A stretch of DNA of 64,000 nt. It comes from a virus. Taxonomy: Duplodnaviria; Caudoviricetes. A model generated the notes under the pieces. The model searched no databases. It was not told the DNA's origin and saw only the letters and a program-made list of their open reading frames with translations. How positions within the stretch are numbered: the stretch's first letter is position 1; each line of letters opens with the position of its first letter. This document shows positions 37,411 to 52,243 of this stretch, piece by piece. The position numbers were made by a program, and so were the translations under genes. The DNA is taken from IMG/VR virus record IMGVR_UViG_3300018914_000001, positions 32,001 through 96,000 of that record. One strand, 5' to 3'.

Positions 37411-37454
37411 TTGCCAACACTCCTTTTGCTATTGATAACTGCTCAATTCCACAT

Positions 37455-37470
37455 TGTTTCACGTGAAACA
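37455..37470. promoter_or_regulatory. parS inside cassette hairpin
   Basis: TGTTTCACGTGAAACA perfect palindrome. Confidence 0.85.
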
Positions 37471-37491
37471 ATGTGGTGTTCAACAGTCATA

Positions 37492-37656
37492 TTAAGAACT
37501 TAGTGTAACGCTTTTATGCTCTTTCCAATCCTTGTATTCAAAGGGGTATCTTTTACATGCTCTTTCAAATTTTTCCCTTGCCTCCTCTTCTGTGTCTGCC
37601 ATACAAAAATCAACAGCAACTTTTTTACTAGTGACTGCCTTCCACCATTTTGACAT
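37492..37656 (-). CDS. cassette ORF, 54 aa
   Basis: Hand translation MSKWWKAVTSKK... Confidence 0.55.
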   Translation of the reverse strand: MSKWWKAVTSKKVAVDFCMADTEEEAREKFERACKRYPFEYKDWKEHKSVTLSS

Positions 37657-37659
37657 AAA

Positions 37660-37830
37660 TCACCAACCCCTTCCAGATTTGTATTTGCCATCCTGTACAG
37701 ATTTGCAGATAGCGGCATCATATCCTGCGTCTCTACACTTACGGTAGCTATCGTTGTGATTGCCACTGCACCCTGCCAGCAGGATAGCCGCAACGCTAAT
37801 GATGACAACGAACTTAGAGAGCTTTTCCAT
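37660..37830 (-). CDS. cassette ORF, small lipoprotein
   Basis: MEKLSKFVVIISVAAILLAGC lipobox; GGAGTGTG RBS. Confidence 0.7.
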   Translation of the reverse strand: MEKLSKFVVIISVAAILLAGCSGNHNDSYRKCRDAGYDAAICKSVQDGKYKSGRGW

Positions 37831-37968
37831 GTTAACACACTCCTAGTTAAATTTGTAGTCATAAGCCGATAGTCCCCATTCTATTCCAGAATCAGTAGCT
37901 ATATACCTACGTCTGCAAAATTAACTGCTCAATCGAACAGCATTATACAACGCTGTTCTGTTCAACAG

Positions 37969-38250
37969 TCAAGAGAATCGCGCAGGAATTTGATTCAATG
38001 CATACATAACGAGATTGTAAATGTCCACGTTGCCTTCAGACGGTTCGATGTCCCAACCTCTATCGTAGTTGCATACATTCTCTATCTGCAACTTAGAAAC
38101 CCTTCCATTATCAATACCAAACATTGAACCAATATCAAACACTTTAGCAGAAAATTTAATTCCATTTACATTACCGCTAACCCAATTCGACTTAGAATCG
38201 AAATAAAGATTAATGATGTTACCGTTTACTTCGATAGTTTGAGTTATCAT
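37969..38250 (-). CDS. cassette ORF, DUF7678-like
   Basis: FSAKVFDIGSMFGIDNGRVSKL...NYDRGWDIEP. Confidence 0.7.
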   Translation of the reverse strand: MITQTIEVNGNIINLYFDSKSNWVSGNVNGIKFSAKVFDIGSMFGIDNGRVSKLQIENVCNYDRGWDIEPSEGNVDIYNLVMYALNQIPARFS

Positions 38251-38302
38251 TATAAACACTCCTTTAATTTTTATTTGAGCTATTAACTGCTCAATCTTGC
38301 AC

Positions 38303-38318
38303 TGTTCCACATGGAACA
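38303..38318. promoter_or_regulatory. parS-like site inside cassette hairpin
   Basis: TGTTCCACATGGAACA. Confidence 0.65.
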
Positions 38319-38334
38319 GTGCAATGTTCAACAG

Positions 38335-38517
38335 TTAGGGCTTTTCTTGGCTCTCAGCAATCAACTCTGAGAGCGGGCGAACAGGGATAATCAGCAAACT
38401 CCCATCTCTTCGCATGTCAGTCTTGTATTGACCGCCGCCCAACTGCTTGTTGATGGCTTCCAAGTCTACAGAGGCAGTACCATCAGGAGTAAACTTTACA
38501 AAGTCCATTTTCTCCAT
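38335..38517 (-). CDS. cassette ORF
   Basis: AGGAGTGTT RBS; stop inside repeat. Confidence 0.7.
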   Translation of the reverse strand: MEKMDFVKFTPDGTASVDLEAINKQLGGGQYKTDMRRDGSLLIIPVRPLSELIAESQEKP

Positions 38518-38604
38518 ATTTAACACTCCTTTTATTTTTGGTAACAGTATTAACTGTTCCATATACTAGGCGTTAACATAGCAGTTAACGCCTGTTAGCA
38601 ACAG

Positions 38605-38856
38605 CTAATTTTGTTTTTTGTAGAACTCCTCTAATTCTTCATCATAGTTTGACTCTACCCATTCAAGAATACAGTAACCCCCTTCCTCTATAATGGACTC
38701 TGAAGGGAAATATTGATCTTCACTTCTGTTATCTAAAGTGAAAATAACAACATTTGTCTTTTTATCAGACACCACTAGTTTTTTATATTCGAACCAACCC
38801 ACTTTGCAATACTGATATTCAACTTTAATTTTATCTTTAAATTTCCATTCGATCAT
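38605..38856 (-). CDS. cassette ORF
   Basis: RBS; stop inside repeat. Confidence 0.7.
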   Translation of the reverse strand: MIEWKFKDKIKVEYQYCKVGWFEYKKLVVSDKKTNVVIFTLDNRSEDQYFPSESIIEEGGYCILEWVESNYDEELEEFYKKQN

Positions 38857-38934
38857 AAGATTAGCTCCTTTATATTTTGTTAACTGCTCAATCGTACCCT
38901 CTCACTAATAGCAGAAAAGGGTACTGTTCAACAG

Positions 38935-39168
38935 TTAAAAAGGAAGGCAATTGCATCCTTGCGTCCCTTTGCAATGCTCACCCCAACATTTATTAACGTT
39001 CGCTGGCGGCTTAGGGTGTATGCAGTTAAACTTAAAAGCAACATGTTCATACTTGACGTAAAAGGGTACGCCGCGCCTTTTCCTGCTCTTTTTGTACTCT
39101 AAGTCAGTCATTCCATTACTGCCTACTTCCTCCTCACCCATCAGTTCCCAATGTCTCCAATCGCGCAT
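38935..39168 (-). CDS. cassette ORF (Cys-rich C-terminus)
   Basis: Stop inside repeat. Confidence 0.65.
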   Translation of the reverse strand: MRDWRHWELMGEEEVGSNGMTDLEYKKSRKRRGVPFYVKYEHVAFKFNCIHPKPPANVNKCWGEHCKGTQGCNCLPF

Positions 39169-39291
39169 ATTAACAACCGCCTTTCAGGGTCATTGTTACC
39201 AACTTCGATTTTTTTTAACCATTTAGTCTCCTCCTTTACTTTAATTTAACCACTCAATCGCCCTCATCCTGTAGATGAAGGCTGTCAATGG

Positions 39292-39528
39292 TTAAAGGTA
39301 TCTACGAGTGCAAAACTCTACTCTTTTTAATACTTCTTCTAAGGCAGATGTATAGCCAGCAAAAACAGGACTATCATTCAACTGTCTTAACGTATAACGA
39401 ATTTCGATTAAATAATGAAATGCCACATCACCACTGATATGCCCCGCATTAACATCCTTTGAAATACTATCTATTCGCTCATTGTAGATTCGTGCCAATT
39501 CAACTAAAGCATCTGCCATATTTTTCAT
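39292..39528 (-). CDS. cassette ORF
   Basis: RBS; stop inside repeat. Confidence 0.7.
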   Translation of the reverse strand: MKNMADALVELARIYNERIDSISKDVNAGHISGDVAFHYLIEIRYTLRQLNDSPVFAGYTSALEEVLKRVEFCTRRYL

Positions 39529-39622
39529 ACTTAGTCACTCCTTAAAAGGTTACTTTCATAGAGTTTAACTGCTCAATCGAGTGCTATGGTTTACATAGCA
39601 CTCTGTTCAACAGTTAAAGTCT

Positions 39623-39826
39623 TTACCGTTGCCTTTCTGGTAAATGAACCTGCTCCATTCCAAGCTGAATGGTTTGTTCAATAGTAACAGAGACTTTCAC
39701 ACTTCCGTCTCTGTAGAGGCGAATTGTGTCGCCTCCTTCAAACCATAGCTCGATATAGTCAAGTGCCTGATGTGTTTTTTGCAGGGTTTTACCTTCAAAG
39801 GTATTGATTCCTACTTCTTTTGCCAT
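39623..39826 (-). CDS. cassette ORF
   Basis: RBS; flanked by repeats. Confidence 0.7.
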   Translation of the reverse strand: MAKEVGINTFEGKTLQKTHQALDYIELWFEGGDTIRLYRDGSVKVSVTIEQTIQLGMEQVHLPERQR

Positions 39827-39911
39827 TGTTTATCACTCCTAGTTTAAATTTAACTGCTCAACTGAGTACCTTATATTGTAAGGTACTCTATCAGCGGTCA
39901 ATATAGAGTCC

Positions 39912-40088
39912 TTAAATTAGGTTGTGTTCTTTTGCGATGCTTGCCACGTCTTCCATACTTTGTTGAGACATATATACACATGACTCTCCTTTCTCTACTC
40001 TGTACTCTCTTGTCTCTATATCTTGTGAGACTAAGCACTCTCCATTGTTATACCATCTTTCAATAATCTTTTGAATTAACTCTTCCAT
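39912..40088 (-). CDS. cassette ORF, 58 aa
   Basis: Hand translation MEELIQKIIERWYNNG...; GGAGG RBS. Confidence 0.6.
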   Translation of the reverse strand: MEELIQKIIERWYNNGECLVSQDIETREYRVEKGESCVYMSQQSMEDVASIAKEHNLI

Positions 40089-40161
40089 TCAACCTTCCTC
40101 CTTGTTTGTAAATTTAACTGCTCAATGAACCGCCTTAACTTATAAGGCGGTCTATCAACAG

Positions 40162-40584
40162 CTAACCGTTAAGAAGTTTGAATAGTGCCTCTTCATTCAC
40201 ATCTGTAGTATAGATGTGAATGTGAATGTTATGATTGATAAGCACATCTTTAAAACTTTCGTGAACTGTCAATTCATCCCCTTCCATAAAAGTGTATTGA
40301 CCTAGACTAAGAATGGCATTGAGACTTATTACACCCTCTAGCAACGTATATCGGTTGCTGATAGTGTTGTATGTGTAAACGATATCAATACTCAATGGCT
40401 CTCTTGCTTCGCGAATCCATTTCTGAACTTTTTCGTATTTCACAATATTAGTAGCCTGAATGTCGCTTCGCTCTGTCGGAAGCCCCAACTGTTGCACTAG
40501 CGGAAGCACATAGGGATGCAGGATAGAAGTCATGAAATGATTCTTTTCAATTTGCACAAATTCAGCTACATTGTTTTTAAACAT
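40162..40584 (-). CDS. cassette ORF
   Basis: AGGAGTGTT RBS; stop inside repeat. Confidence 0.72.
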   Translation of the reverse strand: MFKNNVAEFVQIEKNHFMTSILHPYVLPLVQQLGLPTERSDIQATNIVKYEKVQKWIREAREPLSIDIVYTYNTISNRYTLLEGVISLNAILSLGQYTFMEGDELTVHESFKDVLINHNIHIHIYTTDVNEEALFKLLNG

Positions 40585-40659
40585 TGTCAACACTCCTTAG
40601 TTGTTTTTAACTGCTCAATTGAACACCCTAGAGTATAAGGTGCTCTGTTCAACAGTCAG

Positions 40660-40851
40660 TTATGCTTGGTAAATCTTCAATTGTTCTTCAAATTTGTAGA
40701 CACGTTCCATGCATTCATAATACTTTTGCAACCAGAAGTCTTTATTCTGATAATGCGGACTTTCAAACCTTTTAAGGCAACTTTCTGCATTTCTCAATGC
40801 TAATTCAATATTTTGTTCGAGTATGCAAATTTCAACGTACCATCTGTTCAA
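40660..40851 (-). CDS. cassette ORF
   Basis: Flanked by repeats. Confidence 0.65.
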   Translation of the reverse strand: MNRWYVEICILEQNIELALRNAESCLKRFESPHYQNKDFWLQKYYECMERVYKFEEQLKIYQA

Positions 40852-40921
40852 TTAAATCAACCCCTTATATTTTTAACTGCTCAATTGAACACATTACATT
40901 GTAATGTGTTCTGTTCAACAG

Positions 40922-41170
40922 TTAGGGCACATAGTTCATTTCAATTGAAACCTCATTAAGCAAGCACCATGTATAAACCATGCCAGCAATGTATTTTGAC
41001 TTGCACTCTTCCACCTTGCCCTTTAACACTAGTGTTCCCCATCCATTTTGCTCAGGTCGTTTAAATAATACCACCTCATCTGTAAAGTGCTTTACGAATC
41101 CACCAAGTCTACGCATATCGCTAGTATTGATTTTAGCTACTCCAATTTCCCATTCTTCAACATAAGCCAT
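40922..41170 (-). CDS. cassette ORF
   Basis: AGGAGTGTT RBS; stop inside repeat. Confidence 0.7.
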   Translation of the reverse strand: MAYVEEWEIGVAKINTSDMRRLGGFVKHFTDEVVLFKRPEQNGWGTLVLKGKVEECKSKYIAGMVYTWCLLNEVSIEMNYVP

Positions 41171-41245
41171 TGTTAACACTCCTTTGTAATTGTTTAACTG
41201 CTCAATCACCCACGCTTATTAGGTTAAGTGTGGGTTGTTCAACAG

Positions 41246-41515
41246 TTAAGAGCATGGTTCAAATTTTAACCTATGTGCAAAACAATAACCATTGATCCAG
41301 ATTTTTAGTCTTTCCTGAAACTGTTTACTTGCAACGGCTTGATCTGTTAGATGAATGTAAAAACTTACAACATCTCTAACTGCATCTTCGATGATTTCAT
41401 AGCCGTAGCTTAGGGTGATACCCATTTCCATCTTAACATCATTGACAAGCATTAAACGATGTGCTTGACTAATTTTTTTAACATATCCAATTCTTACTTT
41501 ATCTTGCATTTTCAA
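41246..41515 (-). CDS. cassette ORF
   Basis: RBS; stop inside repeat. Confidence 0.7.
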   Translation of the reverse strand: MKMQDKVRIGYVKKISQAHRLMLVNDVKMEMGITLSYGYEIIEDAVRDVVSFYIHLTDQAVASKQFQERLKIWINGYCFAHRLKFEPCS

Positions 41516-41582
41516 TCACTCCCTTGGTTATTATTCAACTGTTCAATCGAACACTCTATATTTAGAGTGCTCTGTTCAACAA

Positions 41583-41867
41583 TTAAATAACTTTATAATC
41601 ACGTGCTACAATATTTTCAGCACATCCGAATGTTTTACCTGTATTAAGATTGCGAAGATTGAAAACTCTATAATCAGGCTTTCCAGTAGGATAGCCATGA
41701 CTGTCAACATGTACCTCCATCCAATGTCCTTCAACATGGTATACATCACCGCTTATGATGCATTGAACATTCATGCCGTCTTGTAGGAACTCAGAGCGTC
41801 CTTCTAAATCTTGCCCCAACATTTCCTGAATCATGATACGATGTTTTCTTTTTAACAAGGCAAACAC
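41583..41867 (-). CDS. cassette ORF
   Basis: Stop inside repeat; start uncertain. Confidence 0.65.
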   Translation of the reverse strand: MFALLKRKHRIMIQEMLGQDLEGRSEFLQDGMNVQCIISGDVYHVEGHWMEVHVDSHGYPTGKPDYRVFNLRNLNTGKTFGCAENIVARDYKVI

Positions 41868-41936
41868 TCCTTAGATATGATAATTGCTCAATTACCCGCA
41901 CTATTAAAATGCGGGCTGTTCAACAGTTATCTCTGT

Positions 41937-42116
41937 TTAAATCTTGTTGATATTAAAAAATCCTTCTTCGATAAAGCCTGTTATTTTCTGTTTTTCTTGA
42001 AGGTCTAACGAATAAGGTCTGATGGGAAGTTCATTTCCATCAGACAATTTAGCCATGTATCCATATTGACCTTGGAATTTTTTGACAACTGTAGCAATGT
42101 AAGTTTTCTTTTTCAT
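41937..42116 (-). CDS. cassette ORF, 59 aa
   Basis: Hand translation MKKKTYIATVVKKFQG...; AGGAGTGTT RBS. Confidence 0.65.
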   Translation of the reverse strand: MKKKTYIATVVKKFQGQYGYMAKLSDGNELPIRPYSLDLQEKQKITGFIEEGFFNINKI

Positions 42117-42194
42117 AATTGAACACTCCTTAATATCATTTGAGTTTAAACGCTCAATCGCACACCTTAAACATTAAGGTGTGCTGTTCAACGT

Positions 42195-42434
42195 TTAATA
42201 GTCTACAGTGTCGCCACCCTCATCGTTTATCGTGAAAGTATGGTTCAACCCCTGCTGTTTTGCCCATTCCCTTAGTTGGTCTACAGTTTCGTAAACGTCT
42301 TCCTCTTCAAACAGGGTGCAGTCAGGATATTCCGCGCAAAAAGCAACGCCTGTAATATTCCCCTGCTTATCGCGACTGATTCGCTTGACATACTCTAAAT
42401 TTTCATTGGAGATAGCGAAGTTTTCGTTAGTCAT
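42195..42434 (-). CDS. cassette ORF
   Basis: AGGAGTGTT RBS; stop inside repeat. Confidence 0.7.
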   Translation of the reverse strand: MTNENFAISNENLEYVKRISRDKQGNITGVAFCAEYPDCTLFEEEDVYETVDQLREWAKQQGLNHTFTINDEGGDTVDY

Positions 42435-42476
42435 ATTGAACACTCCTTAGATTTTAATAACTGCTCAATGAAGTTG

Positions 42477-42492
42477 TGTTCCACGTGGAACA
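42477..42492. promoter_or_regulatory. parS inside cassette hairpin
   Basis: TGTTCCACGTGGAACA. Confidence 0.8.
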
Positions 42493-42507
42493 CAACTCTG
42501 TCAACAG

Positions 42508-42864
42508 TTATACTTCGATCTCATCTTGCGTGTACTTGCCACGCAAGCACGAAATGGTGTTTAGGATGTACTCGCAACGCTCTTTGTAATTCCATGTATT
42601 CCAGAAGTCAGCGGGAAAATCTTGACTGTTTTGAAAGAACGTTTCATCCATGATGTCAGCAGATGAAAGCACGTGAACGCCAGCGTATCCCCTTTTGTCA
42701 TTTTCGCTGTAGAGGACGTAAAACAATTCTCCGTTTACTTCCCATTCGTACCATTCGCCGCTGTCCTCACTACCTATTGAGGAAGTAGCCTCCTCAAAGA
42801 TTTCCTCATGAACAGTCAGTTGAATGTTGATAACAGAGGCTTGCTTGACATTGATACTCAACAT
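42508..42864 (-). CDS. cassette ORF (acidic)
   Basis: GGAGG RBS; stop inside repeat. Confidence 0.7.
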   Translation of the reverse strand: MLSINVKQASVINIQLTVHEEIFEEATSSIGSEDSGEWYEWEVNGELFYVLYSENDKRGYAGVHVLSSADIMDETFFQNSQDFPADFWNTWNYKERCEYILNTISCLRGKYTQDEIEV

Positions 42865-42865
42865 T

Positions 42866-43099
42866 TTACATTACCTCCTCTATTGTAACACCAGTTTTAA
42901 CAACTTGAATTTCAACACCAACATTAGAAGGGTTAAACGGCCTATCAACTTTTCGCCTCTTATTAATTTTAAACTTATTAGTAAGAGGTTTAATATTGAG
43001 ATTGTCGCCATCAACCTCTTCTACATATGCGTAGAAATTGTTAATGGGATTCTCGTATTGAATTAGAATAACGTCACCTTGCTTAACCTGTTCTGTCAT
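42866..43099 (-). CDS. cassette ORF
   Basis: AGGAGTGTT RBS. Confidence 0.7.
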   Translation of the reverse strand: MTEQVKQGDVILIQYENPINNFYAYVEEVDGDNLNIKPLTNKFKINKRRKVDRPFNPSNVGVEIQVVKTGVTIEEVM

Positions 43100-43212
43100 G
43101 TTGTTAACACTCCTTTGTTGATAAACTTAATCGCACTCACTTGTAAAATGAGTGCTGTTAAGTACATCATAAGTTTACTTTAATGAATTGAATAATTGTT
43201 ACACTTAATTCT

Positions 43213-43392
43213 TTACTTGTGCTTAGGGGCATCCATTTGCTTCCTTTTAGTTTTAAGTACACCTTTCCCCTGACTACCTTGCCCACAACTCGTATCATGA
43301 TTCTCTGCCCCTTTTTTTCGCCGTTGAGCCTCTTTTAAACCTTGTCTATAGGCATCTTCGATGTCTTTAGCGTTGAACTCAGAGATAGACAT
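43213..43392 (-). CDS. cassette ORF
   Basis: GGAGG RBS before MSISEF. Confidence 0.55.
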   Translation of the reverse strand: MSISEFNAKDIEDAYRQGLKEAQRRKKGAENHDTSCGQGSQGKGVLKTKRKQMDAPKHK

Positions 43393-43465
43393 TGCAACCC
43401 CTCCTAGTGTATGGCTTAAAAGCTCAATTGCCCTCACTTATATTTAAATGAAGGCTGTTCAACTT

Positions 43466-43684
43466 TTAATTCTCATCATGTACGGTAAAAGAGTAGCCTA
43501 ATTTGTTAAGTAAGTGCATTATCATCCACGACAATTCTTTGTCGTAAAATATATAGGACTCTTCATACTTATCAGTTGTTTTGACATCTCCATTGGGCAA
43601 GAGTCCAGCGTAATATAGCTTTTTGTTGTCATCATGCAAATACCAACCGTTAAATTCCTCTAATTCGATAAACTCTTCTACCAT
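43466..43684 (-). CDS. cassette ORF
   Basis: AGGGGTGTT RBS; stop inside repeat. Confidence 0.7.
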   Translation of the reverse strand: MVEEFIELEEFNGWYLHDDNKKLYYAGLLPNGDVKTTDKYEESYIFYDKELSWMIMHLLNKLGYSFTVHDEN

Positions 43685-43753
43685 AGTTAACACCCCTTAA
43701 ATTTAGTGTAACACCATTCGACACACGAGCCTGTCGTGCGTCTTAGCTGTCAA

Positions 43754-44050
43754 CTATTTGAGAAACAAGCACCCATAAGAGAAGATAAAAATGTCATGCC
43801 CAGCTTCCTTAAATGCCTGTTGGATTTCCAGATTATCACTAAACTTGATTTTTTCTTTCTCCATCCAACTTAATGAGTTAAGATACTCTGATGTCAAGCC
43901 TATACGTTTGATACTAACATTATCTAAGTTAAGTGCATACTCATATTGTTGAATTAACTCAGGTAGAGTGTCAAATTTAGACTCACCTTCACACCAACTA
44001 TTGACAGCGTTATACCAGCCTACAGCGATACCATATTTTTTAATCATCAA
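43754..44050 (-). CDS. cassette ORF
   Basis: AGGAGTGTT RBS. Confidence 0.7.
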   Translation of the reverse strand: MMIKKYGIAVGWYNAVNSWCEGESKFDTLPELIQQYEYALNLDNVSIKRIGLTSEYLNSLSWMEKEKIKFSDNLEIQQAFKEAGHDIFIFSYGCLFLK

Positions 44051-44114
44051 AACACTCCTTTCAAATTAACAAACTTAATCACGTCCACCTATTAGATGGA
44101 CGCTGTTAAGTGAG

Positions 44115-44300
44115 TTAATCTTTAAAGGGAACTCCTGTTTGACATCCATTAACAGGGCAAATATATATGCATCCTTTGTACATAACACCATCAATGATGG
44201 GAATAAAATCTTCTCCATATTCCGCTTGTGTTTCTTCATTCCATTCACGTTCATCAGAAACGGCACTGCAAGCAGGACATTGAACGTTATTTTGACTCAT
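44115..44300 (-). CDS. cassette ORF, Zn-ribbon
   Basis: CPAC...CPVNGC; GGAGG RBS. Confidence 0.7.
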   Translation of the reverse strand: MSQNNVQCPACSAVSDEREWNEETQAEYGEDFIPIIDGVMYKGCIYICPVNGCQTGVPFKD

Positions 44301-44368
44301 TTAATCAACTCCTCCTTTATTTAACAACTCAATCACGTTCACCTGTTAGATGAACGTTGTTCAGTGTG

Positions 44369-44602
44369 TTAAATGCGACTATGATTTTTAAGATAGTCTT
44401 CTATCTCATTCCAAATTGAAGAGATGTAAGGTATTTTAAATCCATAATCAATAGAAATTAGCTTTCGCTCTTTTATAACAAAAGTAAATTCATGCCGATG
44501 TGAACACTCATTGTAATAAAACTCTATCACACCCACAAAATCCCCTTCACCATCTTTGATAATATCGACAAATTCGTATAATTTTTCACCCATGCCTACC
44601 AC
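44369..44602 (-). CDS. cassette ORF
   Basis: Stop inside repeat. Confidence 0.65.
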   Translation of the reverse strand: MVGMGEKLYEFVDIIKDGEGDFVGVIEFYYNECSHRHEFTFVIKERKLISIDYGFKIPYISSIWNEIEDYLKNHSRI

Positions 44603-44686
44603 CCCCTTCTTATCGTTAAAATACTTGTTTTATAGAGCTTAACTGCTCAATTAAGTCCCTTATGAAATAAGGGACTCTATCAACAG

Positions 44687-45220: not shown

Positions 45221-45290
45221 ACCAACACCCCTTTTTGTTAAGTTGACTGTTCAATTAGTTACAGGAGTATTCCTGTAACCTGTTCAACAG

Positions 45291-45593
45291 TCATATAGTC
45301 TTTCTGCACAACCCTTTCACAATACACGTGTTACACATTGCAACGCCTTCCTCAGTGAGACTTCCACATTCGCAATTGCGTGTAATTGTCTTAATAAGGC
45401 TGTCAATTGCCGCTTCAGCCTTACTAAGACCTCTGTAAGTAGTTTCTGTGATAATGGTTCTATCTTTTCTCAGGTGTCTTACGATCAACGTCTTAGGGCT
45501 AGGATTAACCACTATAACATTTTCAATTTGAGGATGTACCCACGCGCTTCCAAGCTGAACGAATCCGTTTTCTCCTAGCTTTTCTTTGAGCAT
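45291..45593 (-). CDS. cassette ORF
   Basis: RBS; C-terminal CECG..CNTC. Confidence 0.7.
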   Translation of the reverse strand: MLKEKLGENGFVQLGSAWVHPQIENVIVVNPSPKTLIVRHLRKDRTIITETTYRGLSKAEAAIDSLIKTITRNCECGSLTEEGVAMCNTCIVKGLCRKTI

Positions 45594-45661
45594 ATTTATC
45601 ACTCCTTGTAATTGTTAACTGCTCAATCGCCCACACTGTTTAAATGTGAGCTGTTCAACAG

Positions 45662-45931
45662 TTATTTACGTTTCGGCTTGCCTTCCTCATCGTATGTGTC
45701 AGGATCAGCGCCAGTGCAATTCCAACCAAACATGGAACCCATCTCCATAGCCGCTCTTTGGGCTTTAGTAACGCCCAAGGTAGCGTTTAATTCATCCGCT
45801 GGGCGTTGATCTTTGCTTTTCCAGAAGCCCATTTCACCGCGCTTCAGCAGGATAATTTCACCTGTACTGCGAAGCGTTCCGTAACAAAACTCAGGCAATT
45901 TGTGTTCAATTTCATGATAAAAAACAGTCAT
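45662..45931 (-). CDS. cassette ORF, conserved small domain recalled from mobile-element proteins
   Basis: ADELNATLGVTKAQRAAMEMGSMFGW...ADP. Confidence 0.7.
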   Translation of the reverse strand: MTVFYHEIEHKLPEFCYGTLRSTGEIILLKRGEMGFWKSKDQRPADELNATLGVTKAQRAAMEMGSMFGWNCTGADPDTYDEEGKPKRK

Positions 45932-46010
45932 TTAAAACACCCCTTTAATGTATTAGCTTGATTAACAAGCTCAATCGCACCTACTTAATAAGTAGGTGCT
46001 GTTCAGCAAG

Positions 46011-46316
46011 TTAAATATCATATAGATCAATTGCATTATTAGGATTAAGAATTTTAATTTGAGTCCTCACCTGTTCATGGCATCCATTGCCCGCATTGCG
46101 CCAAAATTGGAAGGTTGCATACTCTTTTAGTCTTCTCCAATCAACTTTCTCAATTGTATGATAAGATTCATTGAATAGAATATCAATGTCTTCTTTTGGG
46201 ATAGTATCGCACGTTAACATATAACTGAGAATGTTTTGAGCAAAATCCTTGTCCTCAAACAGCACTAACCCATGAATGGCTGTTCTCATGTTGCGATAAT
46301 TAATAGCATAAATCAT
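46011..46316 (-). CDS. cassette ORF
   Basis: RBS; stop inside repeat. Confidence 0.7.
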   Translation of the reverse strand: MIYAINYRNMRTAIHGLVLFEDKDFAQNILSYMLTCDTIPKEDIDILFNESYHTIEKVDWRRLKEYATFQFWRNAGNGCHEQVRTQIKILNPNNAIDLYDI

Positions 46317-46393
46317 ATTCAGCACCCCTTTTCACCTTGTGTTTTAACAAGCTCAATTAGAAGGTTAACGCTGTTAACCTTCTTATCAGCATG

Positions 46394-46633
46394 TTAATTA
46401 ATGTAAGCCAGCGAAACTTCAATTTCTTTGCTGTTGAGGACTTGAATTTTCTTATCGAACATTTCCACGTCATCTTCATAGCTTTTCATCCCTGCCATGA
46501 CAACGCGCTGGACAGCTTTAGGAAGACACGAAAATTGTGTAGTAAGAATAAACGATTCAAGCTCTTCAATATCACGCTCTAAGCCCGCCTTGCTCTTAAT
46601 CATGTTGTACTTTTTGTCACGTTGAAATTCCAT
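46394..46633 (-). CDS. cassette ORF
   Basis: GGAGAGTG RBS before MEFQRD. Confidence 0.65.
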   Translation of the reverse strand: MEFQRDKKYNMIKSKAGLERDIEELESFILTTQFSCLPKAVQRVVMAGMKSYEDDVEMFDKKIQVLNSKEIEVSLAYIN

Positions 46634-47097
46634 ATTTAGCACTCTCCCTAGAATTGGTAGCTTAATTGCTCCATTGGTGGACACTTTAACAGTGTTCACC
46701 TAGCAACAATTAATGATTGTAATGCTGTTTAATATCTTTCAATACGGGCACAACATACTTCTTGAGGAGGTATAGGATGCCGTGTCCAATACCCATTCCA
46801 GCAACCCATGATGCAATTGCTACAACGTCATTCATTTGAAATTCCTCCATATGCGTTTAATAGCGCGTTTAATTTTGTCGAAGAGGGTTTTACGTTTGCC
46901 TATCACTTTCATGCTGTAGCTCCTCTATTTAATGATAATTGCACCGTTAACATAAAGATTTTTAAAATCTTGTTGTCGTTTCCACTTGGAGGCAAGTAAA
47001 ATAAGTTGCTTCCTAGTTAACAACATTTGCACCTCCTTTTATTGTATTAACTAACACCATCAGAGGCTAGATAAAACTCTAGCCTCTTAGCTGTTAG

Positions 47098-47421
47098 TTA
47101 GTCTTCTAAATAGTAGTTTGTCGGCACGTTTCCAACTAATGTAACATGATTCCCATTGGTATCATGCCAAATATACCATTTCACATGTTGTTCTAACGTC
47201 TCACCCTTGATTAAAAGCTCTTGCGGATCAATATTAGAATCGTGCGGCAAATAGATAGTCGCGTGACCATCACATTGCACCTCATCCCAATCTATGTTCC
47301 CCTCCTCATCCATTGGCATTTCACCGTTATAAATGGCTTTTTCACAATGTTCGCAAAAATGCGGTAAACCCTCCATATTTTCCCAATTAAGGTGATTACC
47401 ATTTGTGAATTTAGCTTCCAT
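47098..47421 (-). CDS. cassette ORF
   Basis: AGGAGTGTT RBS. Confidence 0.72.
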   Translation of the reverse strand: MEAKFTNGNHLNWENMEGLPHFCEHCEKAIYNGEMPMDEEGNIDWDEVQCDGHATIYLPHDSNIDPQELLIKGETLEQHVKWYIWHDTNGNHVTLVGNVPTNYYLED

Positions 47422-47507
47422 TTTAAAACACTCCTTTAAGTGTAGTTAGTGTTCATATTAATTAACACCATTAAACAGCCTATCAACTAGGCTGTTTTAG
47501 CTGTTAA

Positions 47508-47813
47508 TTACCAAAATTGAGCCATTTTAATTCGTCTTTTATACTCTTCTGCTTTAATACAACTGTGTGCACCTCTCTCTTTCATCCATCTTTCAACCAC
47601 TTCCCTTATATATTTAGGTATGGTTTCCCACGTCTTGCCCGCTGTAATACCTTCATAAACACCCATAGGCTCAGATGTAAGGGCGATAGTGGGCACATCT
47701 TTGACGATTATAAAACCATAGTCAGACCTGCCATACTTATGGTATCTAGCAATGGTTACTTGACCATTAAGAACACAATATACACACCAGTACTTATTTT
47801 CGAATAAGATCAT
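47508..47813 (-). CDS. cassette ORF
   Basis: GGAGTGTT RBS. Confidence 0.72.
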   Translation of the reverse strand: MILFENKYWCVYCVLNGQVTIARYHKYGRSDYGFIIVKDVPTIALTSEPMGVYEGITAGKTWETIPKYIREVVERWMKERGAHSCIKAEEYKRRIKMAQFW

Positions 47814-47892
47814 TTAAAACACTCCCTTGGAATTGTGAATTAACAACTCAATCAGCCTTAACATATTGCTGTTAAGGCTTATCAGTAGTTAA

Positions 47893-48306
47893 TTAACCAT
47901 AAATAAGCTCACCAAACAGGGCATATTGGAAAATGCAGTCATACGTGGTAGCGTCTGCATTTTCTAGGTCACAATCGAAAGGGCGTTCCATAGCATTCAG
48001 TTTAATGCCATCAAGGAGCTTTTTCTTTGTAAGCCGCAAGTCCTTTCCATCGTACTCTTCCACGTCACGGAAAACCACACTCTTGCGATTCAAAAGCAGA
48101 TGAGTTATCCATTGAGAGAGCGGAATACCCTTTGGCTTATCATCCCATTCCTTGCGGTCATTCTGAATTTGCGCCCAATAGTTAGTTCCACCCTCTACCG
48201 CGCCACAGATAACATTGTCAATGTCGTTTGCTGTCAAATTCAGAACGCTCTTTCCGTTGCGGACAGTTGCAATCACCTTTTCGGAATCGAAGTTGATAAG
48301 TGGCAT
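47893..48306 (-). CDS. cassette ORF, conserved phage protein
   Basis: AVEGGTNYWA...DADxxDCIFQYALFGELIYG-type motif. Confidence 0.75.
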   Translation of the reverse strand: MPLINFDSEKVIATVRNGKSVLNLTANDIDNVICGAVEGGTNYWAQIQNDRKEWDDKPKGIPLSQWITHLLLNRKSVVFRDVEEYDGKDLRLTKKKLLDGIKLNAMERPFDCDLENADATTYDCIFQYALFGELIYG

Positions 48307-48382
48307 ATAAAACACTCCTTTAGTATTTTAGTTAACACCATTAGACATATGATAAACTCATATGCCTTAGCTGTTAACTTTA

Positions 48383-48586
48383 TCAAACAGTGATGGACTC
48401 TATTTCCTCAAACTTAAATGTAAACTCCTGTACACCTTCTACCGTTTCATAGGCTAGTGTGACTGAATTTTTACAAATATCTAATACGTCACCATGCACA
48501 CATGCGCCGTCTCCATGAATAGTAACCATGCGACCATTTGCATATGCTTCTACAATCATGTTTAAGATATTCTCATATTGACTCAT
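48383..48586 (-). CDS. cassette ORF
   Basis: AGGGGTGTT RBS. Confidence 0.7.
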   Translation of the reverse strand: MSQYENILNMIVEAYANGRMVTIHGDGACVHGDVLDICKNSVTLAYETVEGVQEFTFKFEEIESITV

Positions 48587-48656
48587 ATATTAAACACCCC
48601 TTTAGTAATAATAATTAACACCATTGGAGCCACTATTGGTTAGTGACTCTTAGCTG

Positions 48657-48830
48657 TTAATTAAATCTTCCCTTATCCAATGCCCTTTGAAGATTGCGAG
48701 AGCGTCCCCTATCATGTCTAGCCGCCCCCAATTCACAACGAATTATAAAGGAGATGATGTAAGCGTAGTCATCAAATCGCTTATTAACACGAAAATCACG
48801 TTTAAATCTAGCTAGATCGCGCATTTGCAT
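48657..48830 (-). CDS. cassette ORF, 57 aa, basic
   Basis: Hand translation MQMRDLARFKR...; stop inside repeat. Confidence 0.55.
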   Translation of the reverse strand: MQMRDLARFKRDFRVNKRFDDYAYIISFIIRCELGAARHDRGRSRNLQRALDKGRFN

Positions 48831-48903
48831 TATGATATGCTCCTTTAATTATTAATTTAAATGCACAATTGCGCCCACTCATAGAGTGGACGCTGTTACG
48901 CAT

Positions 48904-49116
48904 TTAATTTTCATCATACCACACTTGACACTCTTCCCAAGTCACAAGGTCACACATTTCCTCATTCTGGTAAAACATCATGCGGATTCGATAGGCAATA
49001 CCTTCCACAAGATACCATTCATGTAATGATAAGGCGATTTGAAGAAGGTGAATTACCTCAGATTTACTCCATCTCTTTTTGGTTTTAAGAGATTCAATTA
49101 ACTGCTGTTTATTCAT
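48904..49116 (-). CDS. cassette ORF
   Basis: AGGAGTGTT RBS. Confidence 0.7.
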   Translation of the reverse strand: MNKQQLIESLKTKKRWSKSEVIHLLQIALSLHEWYLVEGIAYRIRMMFYQNEEMCDLVTWEECQVWYDEN

Positions 49117-49191
49117 GTGTAACACTCCTTTAGAGTAACATGTTTAACATGCTCTATTGAGCGAGTAATTTTTACTCACTCTAACAACATG

Positions 49192-49329
49192 CTAAATCAT
49201 GTCTCCATGACAGCCTATGTCATACTGTTCATAGCACTCTTTGCATTCAACACGTACTGCATCCTCATCAACAAGAATGATTCCATCGTGACAACCACAA
49301 TCGCATATGAACAAAATTCTAAAATCCAT
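49192..49329 (-). CDS. cassette ORF, 45-aa Zn-ribbon
   Basis: MDFRILFICDCGC...CKEC; AGGAGTGTT RBS. Confidence 0.6.
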   Translation of the reverse strand: MDFRILFICDCGCHDGIILVDEDAVRVECKECYEQYDIGCHGDMI

Positions 49330-49412
49330 TTACAACACTCCTTAATCAATTGTAGTAAGAGGTTAATTCCTCCAGTGGTTACATTAACAACGTTAATGTA
49401 ACCTAGCAGGAA

Positions 49413-49577
49413 TTAGAATTTGTCTTGTGAATCAATCCATTCTTCAGCCTCTTGCACACTGTCGCATTCCCATTCTAATTGCCCATCTTTGAAAATCCAG
49501 ATGGGATAACTAGCCTCATCACGTGCGGTAGTTTCTTTGATAATGTGACCTTTGTATTGTTTAATTTTCTTTGCCAT
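49413..49577 (-). CDS. cassette ORF, 54 aa
   Basis: MAKKIKQYKGHII...EAEEWIDS. Confidence 0.65.
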   Translation of the reverse strand: MAKKIKQYKGHIIKETTARDEASYPIWIFKDGQLEWECDSVQEAEEWIDSQDKF

Positions 49578-49646
49578 GTTTAACCACTCCTTTTAATTAA
49601 CTGCTCAATTGCCCATTACAGTATAGCTGTAATGGGCTATCAACGG

Positions 49647-49973
49647 TTAATTGGAGAAAATTTTCATGTAATAATATTCGTAAGTGAATTTAATTTTCTC
49701 TGTCACAACTCTACGCATATCGAGCATAGAATTAGACATCCTGTTATCTTCCAAGAGCTTAACAGCCTTCATCCCTTCCGCGATTTCCCAAAGAGAATTT
49801 GCAAGACGTTTTTCCTCTTGCAACATGTTATCCCATTTCTCTTCAGAAAGAGGAGAGTTGTTGAATGTACTTAACATTTCACTGAACATGTTTACATAGA
49901 CATCTTCAAAAATATTTTTTCCACCAAATTTAAAATTAAATTCAGCAATGTTAATATTAACTTTGTTAGACAT
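49647..49973 (-). CDS. cassette ORF
   Basis: AGGAGTGTT RBS before MSNKVN. Confidence 0.7.
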   Translation of the reverse strand: MSNKVNINIAEFNFKFGGKNIFEDVYVNMFSEMLSTFNNSPLSEEKWDNMLQEEKRLANSLWEIAEGMKAVKLLEDNRMSNSMLDMRRVVTEKIKFTYEYYYMKIFSN

Positions 49974-50059
49974 ACAAAACACTCCTTTAGTGTTAGTGTT
50001 AGTAGCATTTAACATGCTCTAGTGGATGGTTTACGTGTGTAAACCATCCTAACAGCAGG

Positions 50060-50386
50060 TTAAACAGAGAGTTCGAAATAGTTCTTGTTTTCGTTTTCGT
50101 CATTGCAAACAATGATTAACATGTTGTTTTCAGTGATACTGAAGTGGCTGACAGGCAGATACAAACCTTCATAAATAAGAATGTATTCATTGGTAGCGTT
50201 GTACATAGCGTAGCCATCAGAAGATGTATAAGCCAAGCCAAAAAAGTCAGACATGGAAGTAGTAAAACGATACCCATGTTCCTCTTCCATCCATTCAGCT
50301 AACATTGCCTCAATGCCGTGAAGTTCAATGTTGCTCATATCTTTTTTGAAGTTAACATTAAGTTGTTCAATTTTTCTGATTTCCAT
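50060..50386 (-). CDS. cassette ORF
   Basis: AGGGGTGTT RBS; stop inside repeat. Confidence 0.72.
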   Translation of the reverse strand: MEIRKIEQLNVNFKKDMSNIELHGIEAMLAEWMEEEHGYRFTTSMSDFFGLAYTSSDGYAMYNATNEYILIYEGLYLPVSHFSITENNMLIIVCNDENENKNYFELSV

Positions 50387-50459
50387 TTAATAACACCCCT
50401 TAATTTTATTTAAAAGCTCAATCACTTACTACAGCGCGACTGTAGTAAGCTATCAGCAA

Positions 50460-50630
50460 TTAAATAATAGTCATCATATGCGGTGCAACAGCAACGCGCC
50501 GCATGTAGGTGTTGTTAGATTCTAACCTAATTTCTTCTGCTACGCTCTCATGCTCCCAAGATTCAGTGTGTTCAGCGTAGTTTTCAGCGTCAATTGCTTC
50601 AATCAATTCATCTTCAAATGTGTATACCAT
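50460..50630 (-). CDS. cassette ORF, 56 aa, acidic
   Basis: MVYTFEDELIEAID...; stop inside repeat. Confidence 0.6.
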   Translation of the reverse strand: MVYTFEDELIEAIDAENYAEHTESWEHESVAEEIRLESNNTYMRRVAVAPHMMTII

Positions 50631-50700
50631 TTAAAATCACTCCTAATTAGTTTTAAAAGCAAAATGACCGCTACCAGTGTTGATAGCGGCTGTTTCACTT

Positions 50701-50937
50701 TTAATACTGTTTAATACCTGCTTCATTGAGCCATTGAAACAGTTCCCAAGGGTAGTTAAATTCCATTTGAAAAGAACCTACTGTAGAATCATCGTCACTT
50801 AATTCTGTAAATACTGCTTTAATTCTTAACCCCTCATCTGTGAAGGCATCAATTTTAAATCTTTTATCAACTTCAGCTTGATAAAGTTGACCTGTAAATG
50901 AGAAGTTAAAAGCACCAGTCACGAATAAATGTTTCAT
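50701..50937 (-). CDS. cassette ORF
   Basis: GGAGTGTG RBS before MKHLFV. Confidence 0.7.
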   Translation of the reverse strand: MKHLFVTGAFNFSFTGQLYQAEVDKRFKIDAFTDEGLRIKAVFTELSDDDSTVGSFQMEFNYPWELFQWLNEAGIKQY

Positions 50938-51008
50938 ATTTAACACACTCCTTAATGTGATTAACAGCAAAATTACTGCTACCAATGTTGATAGCAGTTG
51001 TTTCGATG

Positions 51009-51197
51009 TTAAGCGTTGTCTAATATCTCTAACAATTCTTGTAATACAAGTTTAAAATAAATACGTTCACTTACGACTGCCCGCCACTTCTTTGCCTCTC
51101 CTTCCATCTCCTTCTTCTCGCAAGAAAGGAGAAGAGATCGAGCAATTTCGATAGACTTACTTACATCGTCAATTTGTTTCATAAGATATTCTCTCAT
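51009..51197 (-). CDS. first cassette ORF of the array
   Basis: GGAGTGTG RBS before MREYL. Confidence 0.7.
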   Translation of the reverse strand: MREYLMKQIDDVSKSIEIARSLLLSCEKKEMEGEAKKWRAVVSERIYFKLVLQELLEILDNA

Positions 51198-51209
51198 ATT
51201 TAACACACT

Positions 51210-52238
51210 CCTTAGTTGAGTTAAAGTGCTGTTGATGAGTTCCGTTTTAGAAACGCATTAACAGCCCATTAAATCAGGCTGTAGAGACTTAATGGAAGAG
51301 GGGGAGAGGAACAGCAATACCCTGCTCTGCAATTGGTTCTAACTTCCAGTTTGCACCTACAAGTATTCTAAATCACGTTCCGCGCCGCCACGCTGTAGGC
51401 TCTAACCTTCCGTTTGCACCCATTGTTGGGACTTACATTGCTGTCTCCTCTCCCTCTCTCCCCTGTCTCGTTTGGAGTGTTAGGAGTGTTAGGAGTTGGC
51501 CTATTCCGCGCTCGTTTGGTGTATCACGCTGTTACACGCTTTCCCATTCTCGACCGCTTGACGCGCTTCACTGCCTCCCTCAACCATTCGCAAGCCACCT
51601 GAAGCATGACTCTGTTGACTAGTCGAGACAAGCCCTATAGCAAGCTATAGGCGTATCGTCGCACGTTCCCTTGGATTCCTCTACCTCTTTGCCTAACTCA
51701 CTGTCGCGCTTAACAGCGTGGACAGGAGACAAGTCCCTTATGGTTTGCTTCACGTATGGTATCGGACGTTAACAGACCTAGCAGGGATAGCAAGAGGATA
51801 GAGGCAGTTCAATGCCTATCCAATCAGGCTACAGTTTGAAGTTGTCAAGGTGCAGTAAAACGGTTAATCCCTCACGTTAGCTTGGGCCTCGATACAGTGA
51901 AGTGGACGGCAACTGCACAAACTTGCCTATAGATCAGCAAGCCCGCCATCAACCACCCTGCTAACGTGCCTCCTCTCGTTTCGTTAGGATTTCACCCCTC
52001 ACCTATGGTGTATCATGCCCTTTGACTGCCCTTTGAAGTCCCCGCCTATAGGGATGGTTCTGGCAATCTCTAGCCATGAGCCTCTAGGACTCTTGGAGTG
52101 ATTTAGACTAGTCGCACAGTGGGTTTTCAGGCTTGCATACGCCATGTTGCACCTGAACCTGTTGGCTGACTAGCATTGCGGTCTATTCAATTCTCTATTC
52201 GGTTGGTGTTGCGTCTTGCGTGTGTTGCGTGTGTTGCG
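51210..52238 (-). ncRNA. ~1-kb ORF-free 5' leader / putative structured RNA of the cassette operon
   Basis: Downstream of sigma-A promoter; visibly GC-richer than flanks; hairpins, internal repeats and tandem anti-RBS motifs. Confidence 0.5.
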
Positions 52239-52243
52239 AGATC

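Follow-up and report, generated by a model that had tools for sequence, protein, structure and literature searches.

An array of 43 sense-strand hairpins between small phage genes, probably sites of mRNA processing related to hairpins of SPO1-type phages

RESULTS

A run of small genes separated by repeated hairpins

The DNA analysed here, called the window in the following, is a stretch of 64,000 nucleotides corresponding to bases 32,001–96,000 of a 158,514-bp IMG/VR virus record with terminal repeats (IMGVR_UViG_3300018914_000001). From about 33 to 51.2 kb of the window all genes lie on the minus strand, and within this part small open reading frames (ORFs) are separated by a repeated intergenic hairpin, which is the subject of this work. 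Proteins encoded in the window include a sigma factor, an S1-domain protein, a GmrSD-like protein, a tubulin-like protein and a UvrD-type helicase. The latter shares 43% identity with its counterpart in Bacillus phage CP-51 and about 41% with the helicases of SPO1-like phages. A single-protein search of viral contigs with the helicase did not reveal a close relative, and a search of viral contigs with a helicase alignment returned 79 loci, all with an identity of 45% or less. Eight kilobases of array DNA had no megablast match in 50,697 phage records, and blastn against the same records gave one 35-nt chance match only. Because helicase identity does not exceed 45% and the array DNA is unmatched, the phage is placed by its sequence as a remote relative of the Herelleviridae that so far stands alone. 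Four metagenome assemblies (contigs from one biocrust study) contain the phage and were used for strain comparison; the DNA analysed here may itself derive from them.

The original prediction for this DNA had described an array of about 40 hairpin-bounded units at 37436–51265 and one outlying copy at 34501–34553. This observation was confirmed, and the repeat is real and far above chance. Altogether, 43 hairpin units were found between 34,502 and 51,011 of the window, every one of them intergenic and on the minus (coding) strand (Table 1). Forty-one fall inside the predicted interval, unit 43 is the predicted outlier, and unit 42 is a second outlier that the prediction did not contain. The 13-nt core TTAACTGCTCAAT was matched 29 times in the window when up to two mismatches were allowed, compared with 3.49 ± 1.78 matches in shuffled sequences (none of 100 shuffles reached 29). 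With at most one mismatch, 16 matches were obtained in the 158,514-bp genome, all of them within 35.5–49.6 kb of the window. A covariance model built from 11 window units (R1) detected 41 minus-strand units in the window, and two further units (13 and 23) were added by eye. Applied to the whole 158.5-kb genome, R1 gave 34 matches at E ≤ 0.1, all inside 34.5–50.5 kb of the window, and no unit outside the array stretch. Likewise, no hairpin match was obtained when R1 was run on the 79 loci of the helicase relatives.

Viral contigs were also scanned for the consensus itself. A strict pattern had no match there, and a loose pattern gave at least 115 single matches that were taken as chance. Further single matches of the consensus scan were found in metagenome contigs (34) and genome contigs (12). 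These 46 scattered loci were considered as true units and rejected as chance: R1 reported six of them at E ≤ 0.1, with 21–22 bits, while most window units score 26–76 bits with this model.

The units differ in the motifs that flank the upper stem. Type A (TTGAACAG/ATTGAG) is the commonest with 17 units, followed by type B (TTG-N-TAG/AT-N-GAG) with 12 units; a further type C carries ACAGCTAAG/AATGGTGT. The predicted clustering of subtypes by position was borne out, with a mean neighbour score of 0.212 compared with 0.134 for all pairs, a value that none of 10,000 permutations reached. Units that match each other best tend to be 10–14 ranks apart; a block duplication was considered as the origin of this and was set aside because the array proteins show no paralogy. 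In one assembly run, a circularly permuted contig of 158,417 bp starts and ends within unit 37 (38898–38927); most likely this is an assembly break at the repeat.

The hairpins fold on the sense strand and covary

When the units were folded with RNAfold without any aid, nearly all 43 adopted a common fold with energies of −16 to −31 kcal/mol. It can be written as ((((((((.((..(stem)..)).)))))))), or its type B equivalent, and consists of a lower stem of about eight pairs, a single mismatch (in most cases G facing G), then one or two further pairs, an internal loop and an upper stem. The internal loop is 2-by-2 or 2-by-3, the upper stem varies from 9 to 12 pairs, and the resulting imperfect duplex is about 23 steps long.

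Covariation was evaluated in two alignments, A6 (25 units, aligned with R1) and A7 (28 units, aligned with a model from other phages, see below). Both were fitted to a structure, which favours pairing: in A6, 98.1% of the cells were paired compared with 75.3 ± 1.2% in shuffles, and in A7 98.2% compared with 67.2%; the unaided folds agree with them. Both sides change in 14 of the 19 pairs of A6 and in 17 of the 18 pairs of A7. The covariation score of A6 was 0.677 compared with 0.205 in shuffles (reached in none of 500), with slid controls giving 0.05–0.11, and that of A7 was 0.716 compared with 0.212. Even the isolated internal pair is kept in A7, being A-U in 18 units, C-G in six, U-A in one and unpaired in none. 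The compensatory lower stems named in the original prediction are present in units 36, 27 and 2 (Table 1), and the covariation that it had proposed to look for is strong in both alignments.

The pairing belongs to one strand. Among 760 cells, 68 hold G-U pairs and six hold A-C, so that only the coding strand fits, as had been predicted. Sense RNA was also more stable than antisense RNA in 39 of 41 units, on average by −5.7 kcal/mol. A variant strain, recovered in one run, differs by 10 single-nucleotide polymorphisms (SNPs) and three small indels over about 18.5 kb. Two of the 10 SNPs hit hairpins (34535 and 48886), and in each case a sense-strand pair changes between G-C and G-U. Thus the hairpin structure is real and belongs to the sense strand.

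Stop codons and ribosome-binding sites keep a fixed register with the hairpins

About 38 of 41 intervals between hairpins hold a single ORF. The intergenic order is the same nearly throughout: a stop codon in a lower stem of 5–8 bp, the internal motif, the upper hairpin, the partner motif and the closing arm. In accordance with the prediction that the hairpin usually contains the stop codon, a stop triplet opens 40 of the 43 units (TAA 31, TGA seven, TAG two). The upstream ORF's own stop lies at unit positions 1–3 in 30 units, at most 14 nt upstream in 12, and 46 nt away in one. Behind the stem, an AAGGAG, GGAG or GGGG motif precedes the start codon in 41 of the 43 units, the start lying 16–59 nt past the stem.

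The array genes themselves are small and, as predicted, unrelated to each other. For paralogy, 48 ORFs were used, namely 47 small ones (including one alternative call at 37,500–37,862) and the helicase, and an all-against-all blastp of this set revealed one weak pair. One of 46 array ORFs had a Pfam match, and five had PHROG matches, all of unknown function.

Signals for transcription were scored throughout the array. Promoter-like sites in a sigma-70 scan numbered 65 compared with 54.7 ± 7.7 expected, and terminator-like sites 13 compared with 12.0 ± 3.7; both are at chance level. A run of at least six T within 10 nt after the stem occurs in one of the 43 units. On the array's upstream side, a promoter match of 8 of 12 positions with an extended −10 was read by eye near 52,27x. 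The G+C-richer kilobase directly before the first array gene (51250–52240) has no ORF of 65 amino acids or more, its short ORFs being of 62 (plus strand), 44 and 48 amino acids (minus strand). It folds better than all 20 shuffles (z = −3.5), while neither Rfam (E ≤ 1) nor blastn against the phage records gave a match. This stretch may be a large structured leader or a non-coding RNA, with the array promoter possibly beyond it.

The hairpins resemble those between early genes of SPO1, SP8 and CP-51

Folding of the intergenic regions in the host-takeover module of SPO1 yielded five hairpins of the same layout, with the motif GGTTGCTAG-stem-ATGGAGCC. The pattern TTGYTAG-N15-40-ATGGAG then revealed hairpins between early genes in SPO1 (five), SP8 (five) and CP-51 (four). 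They have the same fold as the window units. All are situated between small genes of the early region with a polypurine ribosome-binding site behind them, and the upstream stop is often within the lower stem.

A second covariance model (R2) was built from 13 of these SPO1, SP8 and CP-51 hairpins, with nothing from the window, and was run on the whole window with filters off. It gave 29 matches at E < 1, of which 28 are minus-strand array units; 15 matches had E < 0.01. The best E-values (6.4e-8, 6.6e-7 and 1.9e-5) belong to units 20, 33 and 14. Type B units bridge the two sets, and unit 14 carries the SPO1 motif itself. The pair after the mismatch varies with the type: it is C-G in SPO1 and in two window units, A-U in most and U-A in two. 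From fold, position and R2 matches, the window hairpins are assigned to the same family as the early-gene hairpins of SPO1, SP8 and CP-51.

R2 found six matches each in the whole records of SPO1, SP8 and CP-51. With filters off, a 14-kb SPO1 terminal region gave six sense-strand matches at E ≤ 0.1 (five strong), and 42 kb of CP-51 gave seven (four strong). In a survey of 36 IMG/VR records, seven CP-51-like records held 4–5 copies each and 29 held none; two 170-kb records had no R2 match. The survey search finds no copy in this phage's own genome, compared with 28 at full sensitivity. Because it misses diverged copies, its zeros mean only that near-consensus copies of the SPO1 type are absent. 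Rfam gave no match at E ≤ 1 across 33–53 kb of the window and none at E ≤ 0.1 in the early regions of SPO1 and CP-51, and the SPO1 GenBank records contain no annotated RNA sites.

Table 1. Hairpin units and other features. Positions refer to the window unless marked as genome positions. R1 and R2, detected by the respective covariance model; fold, common fold in RNAfold.
Feature	Position	Strand	Description
Unit 1	50962-51011	-	variant TCGAAACA/AATTTTGC; after first array gene; R1 E=0.0093, fold
Unit 2	50654-50703	-	variant GTGAAACAG/CATTTTGC; lower stem TAAAAG/CTTTTA; R1, fold
Unit 3	50411-50462	-	type B (CTGATAG/ATTGAG); R1, R2, fold
Unit 4	50010-50062	-	type B (CTGTTAG/CTAGAG), internal pair U-A; R1, fold
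Unit 5	49598-49649	-	type B (TTGATAG/ATTGAG); R1, R2, fold
Unit 6	49364-49415	-	type B (CTGCTAG/CTGGAG), internal pair C-G, lower stem TAATTC/GAATTA; R1, R2, fold
Unit 7	49146-49193	-	type B (TTGTTAG/ATAGAG), internal pair U-A; R1, R2, fold
Unit 8	48858-48906	-	variant GCGTAACAG/AATTGTGC; R1, fold; variant-strain SNP 48886, sense G-C to G-U
Unit 9	48616-48659	-	type C (ACAGCTAAG/AATGGTGT); R1, R2, fold
Unit 10	48333-48376	-	type C; R1, R2, fold
Unit 11	47841-47891	-	type B (CTGATAA/ATTGAG); R1, fold
Unit 12	47463-47506	-	type C; R1, R2, fold
Unit 13	47050-47100	-	type C; by eye, missed by R1 and R2; fold
Unit 14	46663-46712	-	type B, SPO1 motif itself (TTGCTAG/ATGGAG); R2 E=1.9e-5, fold
Unit 15	46345-46396	-	type B (CTGATAA/ATTGAG); R1, fold
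Unit 16	45963-46013	-	type A (CTGAACAG/ATTGAG); R1, fold
Unit 17	45616-45664	-	type A (TTGAACAG/ATTGAG); R1, fold
Unit 18	45244-45293	-	type A, TGA stop, lower stem TGACTG/CAGTCA; R1, fold
Unit 19	44936-44986	-	type A; R1, fold
Unit 20	44640-44689	-	type B (TTGATAG/ATTGAG); best R2 match, E=6.4e-8
Unit 21	44322-44371	-	type A variant (CTGAACAA); R1, fold
Unit 22	44067-44117	-	variant CTTAACAG/ATTAAG, without G-G mismatch; R1, fold
Unit 23	43704-43753	-	type C; by eye; fold
Unit 24	43417-43468	-	type A, lower stem TAAAAG/CTTTTA; R1, fold
Unit 25	43119-43169	-	variant CTTAACAG/ATTAAG; upstream stop 46 nt off; R1, fold
Unit 26	42458-42510	-	type B2 (TTGACAG/ATTGAG); R1, fold
Unit 27	42147-42197	-	type A, lower stem TAAACG/CGTTTA; R1, fold
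Unit 28	41881-41929	-	type A; R1, fold
Unit 29	41536-41585	-	type A, U-G pairs in lower stem; R1, fold
Unit 30	41195-41248	-	type A; R1, fold
Unit 31	40874-40924	-	type A; top R1 score, 76.5 bits
Unit 32	40608-40658	-	type A; R1, fold
Unit 33	40115-40164	-	type B (TTGATAG/ATTGAG); R2 E=6.6e-7
Unit 34	39851-39900	-	type B (CTGATAG/GTTGAG); R1, R2, fold
Unit 35	39566-39616	-	type A; R1, fold
Unit 36	39247-39294	-	type B2 (TTGACAG), lower stem TAACCA/TGGTTA; R1, R2, fold
Unit 37	38881-38937	-	type A, long upper stem; R1, fold
Unit 38	38551-38607	-	type B variant (TTGCTAA/ATGGAA); R1, fold
Unit 39	38284-38337	-	type A; R1, fold
Unit 40	37922-37971	-	type A; R1, fold
Unit 41	37436-37489	-	type A; opens the originally predicted region; R1, fold
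Unit 42	36930-36977	-	diverged outlier between last small gene and helicase gene; R1 E=0.00029, fold
Unit 43	34502-34552	-	outlier directly after helicase stop; R1, fold; variant-strain SNP 34535, U-G to C-G
Small-gene block	36979-51197	-	about 45 co-directional small ORFs, 33-143 aa
Upstream region	51250-52240	-	G+C-richer, about 1 kb directly upstream of first array gene; without credible coding ORF
Helicase gene	34554-36830	-	UvrD/PcrA-type; between units 42 and 43; 43% identical to CP-51 helicase
S1-domain protein	29928-30947	-	339 aa; single S1 domain, residues 90-167; no PHROG family
Xer-like tyrosine recombinase 1	genome 96117-97154	-	below every curated NCBIfam cut-off
Xer-like tyrosine recombinase 2	genome 118775-119755	+	below every curated NCBIfam cut-off

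Other features of the phage

Iteron-like GGGGGTA(T) repeats in a gene-poor stretch, with a tubulin/FtsZ-like gene and a Replic_Relax gene near them, were noted at 52450–53300, 57364–58491 and 63016–63909. Together they look like a plasmid-type replication or partition module in a phage of Herelleviridae size. The two Xer-like recombinases may resolve dimers of a plasmid-like form. At 54553–54827 (minus strand), the region's best sigma-A-like promoter (TTGACA-18-TATTAT with TG, 11 of 12 positions) has two terminator-like hairpins behind it within about 250 nt and may drive a short RNA. A cluster of eight tRNA genes, all those found in the window, lies at 690–4346, and a GmrSD-N (DUF262) protein is encoded at 20874–22199.

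DISCUSSION

Proposed processing by RNase III

In our best reading, a hairpin already known from RNA processing in phages has been multiplied at least seven-fold in the array and has acquired new sequence variants. We consider it likely that a long polycistronic transcript is cut at the hairpins into stable one-gene mRNAs. The sites mapped in SP82 early mRNA for RNase III of Bacillus subtilis most likely belong to this hairpin family. The TTGCTAG hairpins of SPO1 and SP8 are, as we assume, these mapped sites, in part because the other stable hairpins recognised between SPO1 genes are terminators with a T-run. The RNA-level role and the likeness to the SP82 sites that the original prediction had favoured are supported by the sense-specific, covarying fold and by the detection of window units by R2.

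Published descriptions of the SP82 sites are compatible with this. According to a passage in PMC1935012, the SP82 target RNAs contain internal loops and B. subtilis RNase III cuts them once, on the downstream side. In PMC4838370 the SP82 sites are given as targets of RNase III, and classic sites are described there as stable stem-loops with small bulges. PMC3896407 refers to Stewart 1998 for sites in the terminal redundancy of SPO1 at which RNase III cleaves, and PMC7509114 and PMC11805744 refer to Hue 1995 for the mRNA stabiliser formed by an SP82 ribosome-binding site. The underlying work on the SP82 and SPO1 sites (Panganiban & Whiteley 1983; Mitra & Bechhofer 1994; Stewart et al. 1998) is taken here from the relevant passages of PMC1935012, PMC4838370 and PMC3896407. 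In the SPP1 genome paper, SP82 appears solely in connection with homing endonucleases, and a search of one literature collection for SPO1 RNase III cleavage sites or intergenic RNase III in Herelleviridae gave no match.

The proposed course of events builds on the observed fold, its strand, the hairpin family, its register with the stop codon and the ribosome-binding site, and promoter-like and terminator-like sites that are no commoner inside the array than by chance. The co-directional block of about 16 kb would be transcribed into one or a few long polycistronic RNAs that start upstream of 51.2 kb, with each hairpin folded into the imperfect duplex described above. No RNase III gene was found in the phage genome, which implies the host enzyme. 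As has been reported of SP82, this enzyme would make a single cut in each hairpin, close to the internal loop on the 3′ side, at a position about one helical turn from the loop. The upstream fragment would keep its stop codon in the 5′ arm, and its terminal hairpin would block 3′ exonucleases. The downstream fragment would start about 25–35 nt before the start codon, and the strong polypurine ribosome-binding site near the new 5′ end would shield it from RNase J1, as the SP82 5′ stabiliser does. A second cut on the 5′ arm would have to be avoided because it would remove the stop codon; the conserved mismatch and the loop would prevent it. In this way the phage would obtain about 45 one-gene mRNAs, each stable by itself, and would need no separate promoter per gene.

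Several points weigh against this reading. Only type B is strongly linked to the SPO1 family; the commonest type A, whose motif is one base longer than that of type B, reaches 12–24 bits with R2. In the reverse direction, the window-derived R1 misses the hairpins of SPO1 and CP-51 (one match at E = 0.31 with filters off), and another R1 run on SPO1 gave a 15-bit match (E = 0.82) outside the hairpin sites. Because this reverse test with a narrow model fails, the link depends on R2 and on the shared architecture. The equation of the SPO1 and SP8 hairpins with the mapped SP82 sites draws on general background, secondary citations and elimination. Transcription of the array, its cleavage and the position of the cut in this phage are deduced from these resemblances. 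The sigma-70 scan would miss promoters of the phage's own sigma factor (27410–28639). Finally, cleavage is ascribed to the RNase III of a presumed Bacillus-type host.

Alternative readings

The hairpins could act at the RNA level without being RNase III substrates, either as uncut 3′ protectors, as in selective RNA processing and stabilisation with another nuclease acting nearby, or as binding sites of a phage RNA-binding protein that would set translation or stability for each small gene. The strand specificity and the covariation fit any RNA role, and a protein could recognise the conserved G-G mismatch and the internal loop. A candidate would be the orphan phage protein with a single S1 domain encoded about 3.5 kb downstream of the last hairpin (Table 1); no link between it and the hairpins was found. 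We regard this reading as unlikely, as the same family occurs in SPO1, SP8 and CP-51, for which passages of the literature report RNase III cleavage, and as duplex length and internal loop match the classic RNase III substrates in the passages that describe them.

The original prediction had gone further and seen in the array a platform for capturing and shuffling gene cassettes. This part found no support. There is no integron integrase, no promoter accompanying the units and no rearrangement inside the array among the four assemblies, and the two homologues of array genes found in the phages Spock and Sundance lack the hairpin (two of two). The array is not a new gene-capture system, and cassette shuffling is speculation. 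The sole hint comes from the variant strain, in which 240 other letters replace the 220 letters of 34262–34483 and thereby swap a 66-aa gene (one of four runs); the boundary lies 15–19 nt downstream of unit 43, and the contig of this strain diverges altogether below 34231.

A combined reading would make each hairpin, together with its ribosome-binding site and the stop codon that it provides, a standard adaptor that expresses a small ORF and also allows ORFs to be swapped, the array being a cassette platform derived from an RNase III site; this we hold to be rather unlikely. Foreign ORFs might, with as little probability, be slotted into the promoterless operon, where signals for processing and translation are in place, by recombination between the flanks or by folding of single-stranded DNA of the lagging strand. 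The swapped gene at unit 43 and the positional blocks of subtypes could conceivably, though doubtfully, be traces of this. Such folding of the sense strand would be possible because this strand is the lagging-strand template, if the G-excess rule applies.

It is improbable that the main role lies at the DNA level, with the hairpin and its identical flanks of 13–14 nt serving as recombination joints at which one-gene cassettes are gained, lost or reordered, an idea put forward for the PeSL elements of T4-type phages. The orphan ORFs, unrelated to one another, all have this element at their borders, subtypes cluster by position, and the swap in the variant strain starts beside a hairpin. GC skew is negative on the plus strand and the coding strand thus rich in G, so that the sense strand would be the lagging-strand template if the usual leading-strand rule holds. 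However, the array shows no rearrangement among the four assemblies, and no recombinase adjoins it, the Xer-like enzymes lying about 13 and 36 kb past its upstream end. No Y1 transposase (PF01797) was found, and the Spock and Sundance homologues do without the hairpin. With helicase identity at 45% or less, no close relative is available for comparison. Moreover, repeats that serve expression would also undergo recombination as a by-product.

Two further readings are very improbable. Intrinsic terminators or attenuators that meter transcription would agree with stable hairpins directly after stop codons. However, a T-run follows one stem of 43 and terminator-like sites are at chance level, so that the ordinary terminators envisaged as an alternative in the original prediction do not account for the array; in addition, the distal genes would be silenced because 43 terminators would follow one another without promoters between them. 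Selfish palindromes of the REP or MITE kind, spread within the operon, would explain the high copy number and the likeness of neighbouring units. Against them, all 43 units share one orientation in one operon (a 16.5-kb block) with a fixed register of stop codon and ribosome-binding site, no RAYT/Y1 transposase (PF01797) was found, and the family is kept in distant phages at equivalent intergenic places.

That the units are integron attC sites and the array a phage-borne integron can practically be dismissed: the stop codon in ...TAAC, the ...GTTAA end, the length of about 50 nt, the one-gene units and two tyrosine recombinases in the genome give a superficial likeness, but both recombinases are Xer-like (the better one scores 35.8 bits, over 44 C-terminal residues, against a cut-off of 265 for TIGR02249), GTTRRRY cores occur in 10 of 43 units, RYYYAAC in four and both in two, the hairpin does not travel with the gene, and 39 of 41 units fold better as the sense (top) strand, although it is the bottom strand that is active in attC.

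Implications

If processing by RNase III holds true, the array, with 43 sites, would be the most extreme case of per-gene mRNA processing in a phage that we came across. Combined with the copies of SPO1, SP8 and CP-51, the 43 natural variants make up a covariation set for RNase III recognition in Bacillus, in which the G-G mismatch, the covarying single pair and the asymmetry of the loop could be dissected. The family is absent from Rfam and could be added. The units might also serve as compact insulators for multi-gene expression in Bacillus.

Relation to known systems

Among known systems, the integron is similar in that single genes lie between imperfect palindromes of about 50 nt, often with the stop codon inside. 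It differs in that the array has no IntI and no core-site consensus, uses the other strand, and has an element that does not follow the gene. The PeSL (promoter-early stem-loop) elements of T4-type phages, which Arbiol et al. reportedly described in 2010, are likewise repeated intergenic stem-loops beside small orphan early genes in a variable region. The PeSL carries an early promoter, whereas the spacer between stem and start in the window holds only a ribosome-binding site. Because no promoter accompanies the units and the spacer is too short, they are not PeSL-like.

The early region of T7 (R0.3 to R1.3) provides the model for the proposed function, a long early transcript cut at hairpins into single-gene mRNAs. 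In T7, the internal loop confines cleavage to one cut on the 3′ side, after which a protective 3′ hairpin is left, and there are five early RNase III sites and 10 in all. Unlike T7, the array has 43 sites and no sequence relation to it, and the host enzyme and decay rules would differ, Bacillus having RNase J1 and 5′ stabilisers at ribosome-binding sites.

In phage Spock (Bastillevirinae), too, small orphan genes form an array in which an intergenic module recurs (NC_022763 148792-161103, locus 4290–10070). In nine of 15 spacers inspected this is a near-identical module of 63–93 nt with a promoter of the TTGACT-17-TAAAAT/TACAAT type and without a hairpin. Each gene of Spock is thus given its own transcription start, whereas the phage studied here would use processing. 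The Spock array holds a homologue of the window gene at 50060–50386 (46% identity), and the Sundance homologue of an array gene lies in a tightly packed operon. As both homologues lack the hairpin, the intergenic module belongs to the gene-expression mode of the phage and not to the gene, the opposite of attC.

The closest likeness is to the SP82 and SPO1 sites, which are intergenic sense-strand hairpins between small co-directional genes. The SPO1 family shares with the window the lower stem, the TTG-N-TAG/AT-N-GAG motif with its G-G mismatch and the variable upper stem; at gp57 and gp58 of SPO1, too, the stop codon lies inside the lower stem and a polypurine ribosome-binding site is close behind. 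The phages are distant from each other (helicase identity 43–45%), and the window has 43 copies compared with about six per genome or early region in SPO1, SP8 and CP-51. It also has types of its own, namely the one base longer type A and the further type C. While SPO1 mixes promoters and hairpins, promoter-like sites in the window array are at chance level. In summary, arrays of small early genes would follow three designs: a promoter for each gene in Spock, a mixture in SPO1, and apparently hairpins only in this phage.

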